IMG/VR virus record: IMGVR_UViG_3300028196_000002
Source: an uncultured virus (IMG/VR IMGVR_UViG_3300028196_000002)
Taxonomy: Duplodnaviria > Heunggongvirae > Uroviricota > Caudoviricetes
Reading direction: 5' to 3' (one strand)
Length of the DNA: 20,000 bases
In this document: positions 5,007 through 13,461 of the stretch, one piece after another
How positions within the stretch are numbered: the first letter of the stretch is position 1
Layout: the number at the start of each line of letters is the position of its first letter
Translations under genes and position numbers: made by a program
The notes under the pieces: generated by a model
Database searches by the model: none
What the model was told of the DNA's origin: nothing
What the model saw: only the letters and a program-made list of their open reading frames with translations

Positions 5007-5039
5007 AAAGTTCAAGGGGTTGACTCTTGGACTTTTTTT
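5007..5039 (+). terminator. Intrinsic terminator closing the left gene block
   Basis: AAAGTTCAAGGG-GTTGA-CTCTTGGACTTT forms a 12-bp stem with two G-U pairs, running into a T7 tract. Confidence 0.7.
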
Positions 5040-5083: not shown

Positions 5084-5929
5084 ATGAGTTCAATCGACGC
5101 AATTCTTTCTCAATATGAGAAAAACACGCAACCTGCCGCAGGCGGCAACAGAATTTCCAGTGAGGAAAGACTTAAAAAGTACTTCACTACAATTCTTCCT
5201 AAAGGAACACAATCAGGACAAAAGAGAATTAGAATTCTCCCAACAACTGACGGTACAAGTCCGTTCCAAGAAATCGCATTCCATGAAGTACAAGTAGATG
5301 GGAAATGGTTAAAACTTTATGATCCATCACAAGATGGTGATGTATCTCCGTTAAACGAGGTAAGAGAAAGTTTATTATCAACAGGAAGTGAGGATGACAA
5401 AATCTTGGCAAGAAATTATAGAGCAAAAAAATTCTATATAGTCAAAGTTATCGATAGAGATAACGAACAAGATGGTCCAAAATTTTGGAGATTCAAACAC
5501 AACTACAAAGGTGATGGTAATTTAGATAAAATTATACCTATCATTAGAAGTAAAGGTGATATTACAGATGTTGTTGAAGGTAGAGATTTAATACTATCGT
5601 TAGCCGTAACTAAGGCAAACAATGGTAGAGAATACACTACTATCAACTCAATTATTCAAGAAGATAAGTCAGGTTTACATAGTGATCCTGAAGTGTCAAA
5701 CGCATGGACAAACGATCCACAAACTTGGAGAGATGTCTATTCGGTAAAACCTCTTGAATACTTACAATTAGTTGCATCAGGTGAAAACCCTGTTTGGGAC
5801 AAAGACGCTAAGAAGTTTATTTCTTCTATGGGTGGTGAGGAAACATTTGGTGGGTCATCAATGACACCTAAGGTTGAAGTAGAAGATGCACAATCAACAA
5901 CAAAAGTAGACGACAACCTACCATTTTAA
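5084..5929 (+). CDS. T4 gp32-like single-stranded DNA-binding protein (281 aa)
   Basis: RIRILP...PF...FH, FYIVKVIDRD...GPKFWRF and DITD..EGRDL motifs typical of the gp32-like family; acidic tail ending DDNLPF; directly upstream of the recombinase. ATG 5084 is preferred over TTG 5027, which lies inside the terminator/promoter. Confidence 0.8.
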   Translation: MSSIDAILSQYEKNTQPAAGGNRISSEERLKKYFTTILPKGTQSGQKRIRILPTTDGTSPFQEIAFHEVQVDGKWLKLYDPSQDGDVSPLNEVRESLLSTGSEDDKILARNYRAKKFYIVKVIDRDNEQDGPKFWRFKHNYKGDGNLDKIIPIIRSKGDITDVVEGRDLILSLAVTKANNGREYTTINSIIQEDKSGLHSDPEVSNAWTNDPQTWRDVYSVKPLEYLQLVASGENPVWDKDAKKFISSMGGEETFGGSSMTPKVEVEDAQSTTKVDDNLPF

Positions 5930-5936
5930 TTAACAC

Positions 5937-6015
5937 GGACCCACCCAAAACAATTATTGATGGAAACATCTGGTGGAGCTACAGAACCGATTAGTCGGTC
6001 CCTACGGGTGGGTCC
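5937..6015. other. Structured intergenic element (candidate cis-regulatory RNA or miniature inverted-repeat insertion)
   Basis: Perfect 10-bp inverted repeat GGACCCACCC (5937-5946) / GGGTGGGTCC (6006-6015) enclosing GATG-GAAA-CATC (5959-5970) and ACCGA-TTAG-TCGGT (5986-5999); direct repeat CCATTTTAA at 5921-5929 and 6014-6022. Confidence 0.75.
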
Positions 6016-6030
6016 ATTTTAAAAAACAAT

Positions 6031-7026
6031 ATGGCAATTAAGAAAAAAGATTTTAAAAGTATTAAATCAAAGTTCTCTAAACAGGCTAAGTTTAAGTCTG
6101 ATAGGTTTTTTGATTTAGGGGACGCATTTTTGGATGCGACGGGATTACCAGGACCATCTATGGGACATATTAATATGTTTTTAGGACATTCGGATACGGG
6201 TAAAACAACGGCACTTGTTAAGACCGCAGTTGATGCACAGAAAAAAGGGGTACTCCCTGTTTTTGTTATTACAGAACAGAAATGGGATTTCCCACACGCA
6301 AAACTAATGGGTCTTGATATTGAAGAAACGGTTGATGAGGAAACGGGAGAAATCGAATATGATGGATTCTTTCTATTCAACAACGAATTCCAATATATAG
6401 AACAAATTACTGATTACATAAATGAACTAATAGACGCTCAGAAGAAAGGTGAATTGGAATATGATTTACTATTCTTGTGGGATTCGGTTGGTTCGGTACC
6501 GTGTAAAATGACGTTTGATGGTAAAGGTGGTAAACAACACAACGCATCGACGTTAGCCGATAAAATCGGAATGGGTTTAAATCAGAGAATTTCAGGTTCA
6601 AGAAGAGTGGATTCAGAATTTACAAATACACTTGTTATTGTAAATCAACCATGGGTAGAACTACCTGACAATCCATTTAGTCAACCAAAGATTAAAGCGA
6701 AGGGTGGAGAATCAATATGGTTAAACTCTACACTTGTATTTAGATTTGGTAATCAGAAAAATGCGGGTACTAACCCTATCTCTGCCGTTAAGGACAAGAG
6801 AAAGGTAAAATTCGCAACAAGAACAAAGATTTCTATCATGAAGAACCACGTAAATGGTCTTGGTTATGAAGATGGTAGGATTATAGTAACCGCACATGGT
6901 TTCTTAAGTGGGAAAGATTCTACAGAAGAAAAGAAATCGTTAGAGGGTTACAAACAGGAACACGCAGAATTTTGGAAAGACCAATTAGGTATTGAAGGTG
7001 ACTTCGATATCAAAGAGGAGGTATAG
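6031..7026 (+). CDS. recA: RecA/UvsX-like recombinase
   Basis: Walker A GHSDTGKTT, catalytic Glu region VFVITEQK, Walker B LLFLWDSVG, VIVNQ, and KAKGGESIWLNSTLVFRF (equivalent of the RecA GG..L.F.A motif). Confidence 0.9.
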   Translation: MAIKKKDFKSIKSKFSKQAKFKSDRFFDLGDAFLDATGLPGPSMGHINMFLGHSDTGKTTALVKTAVDAQKKGVLPVFVITEQKWDFPHAKLMGLDIEETVDEETGEIEYDGFFLFNNEFQYIEQITDYINELIDAQKKGELEYDLLFLWDSVGSVPCKMTFDGKGGKQHNASTLADKIGMGLNQRISGSRRVDSEFTNTLVIVNQPWVELPDNPFSQPKIKAKGGESIWLNSTLVFRFGNQKNAGTNPISAVKDKRKVKFATRTKISIMKNHVNGLGYEDGRIIVTAHGFLSGKDSTEEKKSLEGYKQEHAEFWKDQLGIEGDFDIKEEV

Positions 7027-13381: not shown

Positions 13382-13409
13382 GTTTAACCACATTTTGTCA
13401 GTTTTTTTT

Positions 13410-13436
13410 AAACCCACCACCAAGGTGGGTTTTTTA
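13410..13436 (+). terminator. Intrinsic terminator after nrdA
   Basis: AAACCCACC-ACCAA-GGTGGGTTT perfect 9-bp stem running into a T tract. Confidence 0.85.
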
Positions 13437-13461
13437 TTTACAATCATTTTGGTATTGAATA

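Follow-up and report, generated by a model that had tools for sequence, protein, structure and literature searches.

A structured element in the 3' untranslated region of ssb

The window, that is the whole stretch of 20,000 nucleotides analysed here, is part of a 133.5-kb virus record (G000) with 34% GC that is rated 43% complete. The element under study lies between two genes for which a preliminary description, made from the letters alone, had given the names ssb and recA, and both names agree with the proteins found, a gp32-like SSB (PF08804) and a RecA/UvsX-like protein. The parts of the element and its neighbours are collected in Table 1.

Table 1 The element between ssb and recA, its parts and the two flanking genes.
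Feature	Position	Strand	Remarks
ssb, gp32-like single-strand DNA-binding protein gene	5084..5929	+	PHROG 224/1192, PF08804; element in its 3' UTR
Closing stem, 5' strand GGACCCACCC, 10 bp	5937..5946	+	locus-specific, terminator-like; compensatory changes in relatives
P1 hairpin GAUG-GAAA-CAUC	5959..5970	+	abuts arm A without gap; predicted stacking cap for target A76
Arm A UGGUGGAGC	5971..5979	+	complement of mature tmRNA / tRNA-Ala 3' end RCUCCACCA
Third stretch CAGAACC	5982..5988	+	predicted pairing with tmRNA D-loop-like GGUUUUG, nt 11-17 (cofold structure, loop test in relatives); its CC doubles as the start of P2
P2 hairpin CCGA(U)-UA-(G)UCGG	5987..5998	+	covariation; hides most of arm B in the free RNA
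Arm B GUCGGUCCC	5994..6002	+	complement of tmRNA 5' end GGGGYCGAC
Closing stem, 3' strand GGGTGGGTCC (6006-6015), and short U run	6006..6020	+	likely weak intrinsic terminator
RecA/UvsX-like recombinase gene	6031..7026	+	PHROG 97; downstream neighbour only

The gap between the two genes has the 101 nt first stated for it, counted from the ssb stop at 5929, but it does not stand alone in its size, since the junction before ssb measures 102 nt and holds a terminator-like hairpin. That most junctions are shorter than 30 nt is correct, 10 of the 14 listed being under 30 nt or overlapping (in this list the junction after nrdA was mis-sized, because nrdA was listed from a GTG). Ordinary terminator-like hairpins are found at 5007-5035, before ssb, and at 13409-13438, after the ribonucleotide reductase genes, and a ATATTTAT box before the following gene, and before many genes in relatives, is likely a phage promoter.

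The 10-bp closing stem (5937-5946/6006-6015) was recovered exactly as described, as were the hairpins GATG-GAAA-CATC at 5959-5970 and ACCGA-TTAG-TCGGT at 5986-5999 and the 15 nt, beginning with ATTTT, that separate the stem from the recA ATG at 6031. The extent of 5937..6015 given to the element holds only for its inner part, the conserved core being 5959-6002; the closing stem lies outside the core and is specific to this locus. Compensatory changes are seen in 5 of its 15 consensus pairs in relatives, and the stem is followed by AUUUU here and by CUUUU to CUUUUUU in relatives. Because of this compensatory variation and of the U runs, the closing stem is likely a local terminator of the ssb-recA site. 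With its U run it stands where relatives have a plain terminator, but unlike a Rho-independent terminator it encloses a structured loop of 59 nt, and the conserved core is elsewhere found outside the terminator; owing to the loop size, a terminator scanner did not call this stem of 10 bp plus AUUUU. RNA contigs over the element end at 5990-6035 in runs X1, X3, X5, X7 and X9, and a contig of run X4 bridges the element into recA; such contigs give neither strand, true ends nor level, and they are a weak hint of termination.

The core recurs at unrelated sites in phage-like contigs

Among 80 loci gathered by RecA, the element stands at the ssb-recA site in 14, and the remaining 66 lack it there, mostly having a plain hairpin and a U run. 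It is carried by 38 of 80 loci gathered by SSB. An unrelated 100-aa gene was used to gather a further 80 loci, and in 72 of these the core lies directly before a terminator; only 3 of 30 loci gathered by the gene upstream of the second locus contain the element. The core is thus tied neither to ssb-recA nor to the gene upstream of the second locus. At the non-ssb loci the upstream genes are many and unrelated, and are not amino-acid genes; the next gene is convergent in four loci (L517, L542, L556, L518), and in a 54%-GC phage (L085) the core lies in a tRNA array. Its settings are therefore the inside of a terminator-like stem (the window), a position before a terminator, the space between convergent genes and a tRNA array.

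This distribution bears on the function first proposed, an attenuator, processing element or gp32-sensing switch controlling the SSB:RecA ratio. Such a device, or a mere large-loop terminator, would suit the location of the element after ssb and before recA, the plain terminator found here in relatives and the thinning out of RNA contigs past the element. Either would account for the closing stem only, whereas the core also follows genes of other kinds, occupies spaces between convergent genes and occurs inside a tRNA array, and most recA relatives lack it at the ssb-recA site. Structured RNAs beside a gp32-like gene are known (the T4 gene 32 leader and the GP32-upstream candidate RNAs), but the gp32 leaders described in PMC10690425 are upstream of gp32, whereas our element is downstream and mostly away from gp32. 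We consider control of the SSB:RecA ratio, or a terminator and nothing else, very improbable; what stands of the early interpretation is a conserved structured RNA, with a small RNA among the options.

Relaxed pattern scans of viral and metagenome contigs gave at least 91 distinct cores, and eight more were found by hand or by looser search, bringing the total to over 90 variants. For the counts below 82 parsed variants were reduced to 66 by removing 12 false parses starting in P1 together with L019, L213, L558 and L756; L540/L520 was left out as lying inside an ORF, and L839, L898 and L830 were removed from the later relaxed-scan set. The parser forced the first P2 pair to be C-G and a7 to be A or G. 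A looser search of 126 unparsed loci gave 4 more cores, two with C at a7, which breaks or bulges the pair to U70, and two with A at a9. As the variants are related, counts over them overstate the number of independent events.

The carriers are AT-rich phage-like contigs, except L085 and L120. Where examined, aquatic jumbo phages have one copy per genome, and no second copy was found in G000. A covariance model gave 2 hits in 121 Flavobacteriaceae-family genomes, one on a phage-like contig in the MAG G001 and one, in G081, that is the sole non-phage hit and, judged by likeness, the reverse complement of a tmRNA-like 3' end. A phage-like contig among those binned into a Flavobacteriaceae MAG bears a copy identical to the element of the window, and the closest isolates by RecA are the Flavobacterium phages vB_FspM_immuto (recombinase 44%), whose gene order is identical to that of the window but whose ssb-recA junction is 2 nt long. 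On account of these isolates and of the identical copy, the hosts are likely flavobacterial. A genome-contig pattern scan (at least 120 hits) gave, among the matches listed, GC-rich chance matches except L276; L273, L280 and L316 were dropped as copies, having no P1 or terminator or lying inside ORFs. The contig G001:C1 (L276, L621, L635, L651) holds the element, a phage tmRNA and a tRNA cluster and is likely binned phage rather than host DNA.

As the preliminary description expected, the element matched no family in Rfam 15: cmscan gave no match over it in the window at E<=5, nor over it in 11 + 12 homologous loci at E<=1. The twister, pistol, hatchet, hammerhead and HDV-like/theta ribozymes were rejected on the same search and on a negative by-eye check against their consensuses. 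A blastn search of the junction against 50,697 phage records returned only four 27-nt chance matches in Synechococcus phage genes. No account of such an RNA was found in the literature at the level of listings and abstracts, and a search for complementary terminators linked to tmRNA genes gave zero matches. The motif string was absent from four supplement files of the viral candidate RNAs of Fremin et al. 2023 (PMC10690425) and from six of PMC8040213; the alignments of both may already include the motif, with no function assigned to it.

Several other features were observed near the motif or at the ssb-recA junction of relatives. After the ssb stop, L452-L473, L481, L491 and L492 have a stem of terminator type whose conserved loop is GAGAUAACGUCA; this may be a second small motif. 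In L024, L030, L031, L037 and L043 the ssb-recA junction contains, after the terminator, short inverted/tandem repeats TTACGAAAA...TTCGTAACGAAAA that resemble an operator bound by a protein, placed before recA. GOLLD RNA lies 0.4-1.5 kb from the motif in three loci (L828:683-1092, L104:2964-3035 and L848:2664-2794).

The conserved structure lies on the plus strand

Each strand folds better than its shuffles, the plus strand at -31.8 kcal/mol (z -2.75, with 2 of 200 shuffles as good) and the minus strand at -37.1 kcal/mol (z -4.09, none of 200). Despite the better energy of the minus strand the active RNA is the plus strand, an assignment that we draw from G·U usage: read on the plus strand, the P2 stems of the 66 variants contain 22 G·U and 0 A·C pairs, and those of P1 contain 13 G·U. 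The strand, which had been called ambiguous, is thereby settled.

The comparison of relatives proposed at the outset gave compensatory changes in P1 and P2 as well as in the closing stem. In the alignment used (A6, which was fitted to the structure and includes two junk rows) 7 of the 9 pairs of P1 and P2 change on both sides, a number equalled by none of 500 shuffles; two MAFFT alignments (A1/A2), in which P2 was misaligned, were excluded from the counts. P1 is a hairpin of 3-8 bp with 23 different 5' stem sequences among the variants. It is missing in 2 of the 66; in the 64 that have it the gap between P1 and the core is always 0, and in 62 of these a U precedes it. The order of the core is P1, UGGUGGA(G)Y, a spacer of 0-10 nt, P2 (CYRRY/RYYRG) and the tail YCC(N); given the exceptions from the looser search, only UGGUGG is close to invariant.

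The two arms are complementary to the ends of mature tmRNA

By consensus, arm A reads UGGUGGAGY, the complement of the tmRNA 3' end, and arm B reads GUCGGYCCC, the complement of its 5' end. In Flavobacteriaceae the tmRNA 5' end is GGGGYCGAC in 23 of 30 sampled genomes, and the 3' end is RCUCCAC with an added CA. Against these 23 tmRNAs a mean of 17.0-17.3 of the 18 arm positions pair over the 66 variants, compared with 13.6-15.5 for tmRNAs with a purine at position 5, 13.6 for the tRNA-Ala of G001, 11.6-13.6 for 18 tRNA-Ala sequences of the family and 7.2-13.0 for 29 other tRNAs. Shuffled arm pairs reached 18 of 18 in 22 of 300,000 trials (P about 7e-5), in a null that keeps composition and self-complementarity and was tested against 42 end pairs; the idea that the element clamps tmRNA was itself framed after the motif had been seen. 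Of the 44 variants gathered by neighbouring proteins, 37 pair at 17 or more of the 18 positions. Two variants have U8, a mismatch to C69, and one has A3.

Three details suggest which molecule is matched. U1-G2 of arm A pair with C75-A76, and the CCA end is gene-encoded in only 1 of 30 tmRNA genes of the family; since C75-A76 are so rarely encoded, the complementarity is to the mature tmRNA sequence and not to its DNA. The match extends to tmRNA positions 8-9 (A, C), which lie outside the acceptor stem and favour tmRNA over tRNA-Ala. Position a9 of arm A, which the parser did not force, is a pyrimidine throughout the 44 variants gathered by neighbouring proteins, and 42 of them have an A·C mismatch as the mirror of the tmRNA pair G3·U70. 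The covariation of b4 with a10 that full pairing would lead one to expect was not seen among the variants.

The P2 loop may add a third contact. Loops often contain AACC, AGCC, AUCC or UUCC, stretches complementary to the D-loop-like GG with the letters following it, and CC is present in 35 of 42 distinct loops against an expected 16-29%. With tmRNA 5' ends 36 of the 42 pair better than their shuffles do, by 2.3 kcal/mol on average, the gain reaching p<=0.1 in 10 of 42.

Part of this pattern can be had without a partner, by pairing of GG in the arm with CC in the loop. A self-contained fold would make the likeness to tmRNA a coincidence: the core would use its GG to pair with the YCC tail or, as a pseudoknot, with the loop CC, and the conserved letters would serve in protein or ligand binding, nuclease resistance or catalysis. 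The covariation of P1 and P2 would be expected of it, RNAfold pairs GUGG with CUAC in the window, G5-G6 can pair with b7-b8 in 44 of 44 variants and A7 with b6 in 22, and loops such as AGCCA, AACCA or AUCC could pair with UGGU or GGA. However, the pseudoknot is impossible in variants with short loops, and neither the pyrimidine at a9 nor the A·C mirror would be explained. GUCGG is moreover retained in L413, which has lost the P2 partner, and in L403, in which the partner is bulged, and the shuffle null and the subfamily changes described below, which match natural tmRNA variants, would again have to be coincidences. We regard such a fold as unlikely, though as an explanation to be taken seriously.

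A reading from the other strand starts from the better fold of the minus strand, which resembles a tmRNA 5' end, a hairpin and a tmRNA 3' end in succession (GGGRCCGAC...CUCCACCA) and might form a mini acceptor stem acting as a decoy, or be the attachment-site relic of a tmRNA gene; the 61%-GC virus L120 has a similar stretch right behind its tmRNA gene. However, the minus strand keeps all four acceptor pairs in only 5 of 44 variants and does not keep the T-loop, and both the G·U count and the terminators, which face the plus strand, go against it. The CCA is rarely encoded in host genes, and the 200 nt downstream of 58 host tmRNA genes gave no such element, only three short chance matches. ARAGORN called no tmRNA or tRNA gene at the element, and we think both minus-strand readings highly improbable.

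Two tmRNA arrangements in GC-richer viruses are recorded here in their own right. In L120 (1500-1899, minus strand) the motif-like stretch directly after the tmRNA gene can pair back with its 3' end and is followed by a terminator. L758 (G208:C1 about 30323-30425 and downstream), from a 54%-GC phage, has a circularly permuted two-piece tmRNA gene in the order 3' end with CCA, hairpin spacer and 5' end GGGCCUGAC, and on the same contig a tRNA array carries the motif (L085), next to a pseudogene resembling tRNA-Pro.

Divergent subfamilies fit natural tmRNA variants

Some subfamilies depart from the consensus in ways that fit the natural tmRNA variants C4-G69, A5, U5 and U8-A9, fits that are not host-matched. 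The L391 family has C at a8 and G at b6, which predicts a C4-G69 target, and such tmRNAs occur in 2 of 401 sampled Bacteroidota genomes. Against real C4-G69 tmRNAs it pairs at 17.7 of 18 positions with -14.7 and -18.7 kcal/mol, against the usual ends with -5.7 and -7.6 kcal/mol, and for the G8 variants the preference is reversed. The L379 core, with A at b5, fits U5-type ends best and the L395 core, with U at b5, A5-type ends; in L385 and L386 the preference is less distinct than in these two. For the copy in the complete genome G002, the best of 77 tmRNAs is the single one of the GGGGCUGUA type, predicted to pair through nt 1-17 with -16.9 kcal/mol against a median of -5.9 over the 77. Coming from variants that are related to one another, these crossed fits are suggestive support for a tmRNA target. 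The Bacteroidota tmRNAs at L930, L931 and L777 are rare cases whose acceptor stem has the pair C4-G69 or G4·U69.

Predicted binding energies

All energies were computed with truncated models of the ends, which leave out SmpB, EF-Tu, modifications and pseudoknots. Mean predicted binding was -14.1 kcal/mol to the pyrimidine-5 tmRNAs of the family, -10.2 to -10.5 to purine-5 tmRNAs, -10.6 to -13.1 to tRNA-Ala and -8.8 to phage tmRNAs; other tRNAs gave -4.4 and the minus strand gave -1.7. Energy separates tmRNA from tRNA-Ala weakly, tRNA-Ala being the best class for 20 of the 66 variants. When the plus strand of G000 was scanned in 11,122 windows, the element was the best binder of the host tmRNA-end model (-23.8 against a mean of -1.2 kcal/mol) once the antisense of the tmRNA gene carried by the phage itself is set aside. 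A nested cofold that takes in the closing stem gave only -2.8 and 0.0 kcal/mol, a calculation that cannot represent binding within the closed loop and for which the extra opening cost is about 5 kcal/mol.

Comparison with known tRNA-pairing RNAs

In part the element resembles two known systems, the T-box discriminator and the primer-binding site, as far as can be judged from its letters, and it seems to lack the defining features of both. The T-box discriminator likewise sets a UGGN tetramer, complementary to a tRNA-like NCCA, against a helix (UGGN stacks on helix A1) and beside a terminator, as described in PMC7583486. Unlike it, our element lies 3' of genes, has no Stem I with specifier and no A1-A2 helix overlapping a terminator, and its predicted pairing extends beyond 4 bp, along the acceptor stem and over the 5' end, in a strand swap. 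Stem I, specifier loop, K-turn and Stem III are all absent, P1 starting tens of nt after the stop codon, and no Rfam T-box model matched. Mutual exclusion of antiterminator and terminator is absent as well, core and terminator being separate in the second and third locus types.

A sensor in cis that is T-box-like only in outline, in which pairing of uncharged tmRNA or tRNA-Ala would control termination, read-through or stability of the carrier mRNA and so link expression to alanine charging, has in its favour that UGGU follows its helix without a gap in every variant with P1, as in the T-box (PMC7583486), that the core is always beside or within a terminator, and that run X4 reads into recA. 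The terminator, however, does not overlap the core at most loci and no exclusive fold is evident; at four loci the next gene is convergent, the upstream genes have no relation to one another or to amino acids, and a specifier stem is missing. We judge it distinctly improbable.

The primer-binding sites of retroviruses and LTR retroelements begin with UGG, are complementary to a tRNA 3' end and invade the acceptor stem. The element, too, has a leading UGG and complementarity over 8-11 nt to a tRNA-like 3' end, so that a captured tmRNA or tRNA-Ala might prime DNA synthesis as in retroelements. Here, by contrast, the carrier is a dsDNA phage, a second arm matches the 5' end, and the hairpin directly upstream, P1, would block the template just past A76; no RVT_1 domain (PF00078) was found in 5 phage genomes, three of them with the element, although divergent reverse transcriptases could escape this search. 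Of all the explanations weighed, this one has the least to recommend it.

A putative clamp on host tmRNA

The reading that we prefer is that of a conserved plus-strand RNA clamp that may act in trans on the acceptor stem of host tmRNA and block its alanine charging and hence trans-translation; we put its probability at about 0.5. The self-contained fold comes next, then the cis sensor, and the remaining explanations taken together rank slightly below the latter. The fuller version of the preferred reading, to which we give a little under an even chance, is that flavobacterial jumbo phages of a widespread group encode a natural anti-tmRNA, a host-tuned three-arm toehold clamp that would capture the uncharged tRNA-like domain and silence host ribosome rescue, often beside a phage tmRNA differing at 5:68.

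Starting from a conserved plus-strand motif that closes phage transcription units on their 3' side and is complementary to both tmRNA ends, we infer the following course. Forming the 3' end of an operon mRNA made in abundance, here that of ssb, the RNA would accumulate, shielded by the terminator stem. UGGU would dock on ACCA, which is single-stranded in uncharged tmRNA, A76 would stack on P1, and GGAGY would then displace acceptor nucleotides 68-72. The freed 5' strand GGGGYCGAC would be caught by YCCC, unzipping P2, and the AACC, AGCC, AUCC or UUCC stretch would add pairs with the D-loop GG. The trapped tmRNA could be neither alanylated nor delivered, and host trans-translation tagging would fall. 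tRNA-Ala, whose last 8 nt and first 4 nt are in common with tmRNA, would be a weaker second target. Charging by AlaRS is required for tmRNA according to PMC8012679, which also cites synthetic antisense oligonucleotides to tmRNA that likewise block trans-translation by base pairing; those are artificial and aimed at the mRNA-like domain, whereas the element is natural, phage-encoded and predicted to target the tRNA-like ends.

During such a block a phage-encoded tmRNA would possibly take over. A tmRNA gene is present in 8 of 14 records with the element, and ten standard phage tmRNAs all have a purine at position 5. The complete genome G002, however, has the element and no tmRNA was found in it, and the reverse holds for G005 (99%) and G192 (93%), which have a tmRNA and no recognised copy of the element; replacement by the phage tmRNA is for this reason only a possibility. 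That the element spares the phage's own tmRNA is a weak idea. SmpB was found in 1 of 5 genomes searched, namely G192.

Three observations concern phage ribosome-rescue genes themselves. Outside the window, G000:C1:36910-37293 (minus strand) encodes a phage tmRNA (ARAGORN tag VDSKVAVA) beside tRNA-Met, Arg, Leu and Glu. Related phages have tmRNAs of a similar kind, in which position 5 is always a purine. In a 311-kb relative the SmpB gene (G192:C1:1118-1519, L929) lies about 5 kb from the tmRNA.

Even if the pairing is not real, an undescribed motif that covaries and comes in over 90 variants is left. If it is real, the element is a new kind of phage RNA and, to our knowledge, would be the first aimed at both ends of a host tRNA-like RNA; it would represent a new mode of RNA-RNA control by strand swap in the acceptor stem. 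It would also suggest a role of trans-translation in anti-phage defence, and provide a short marker from which the hosts of uncultured jumbo phages could be predicted through their tmRNA ends. An RNA directed against host tmRNA would bear on why large phages carry tmRNA and tRNA genes, and would make a take-over of ribosome rescue directly testable.
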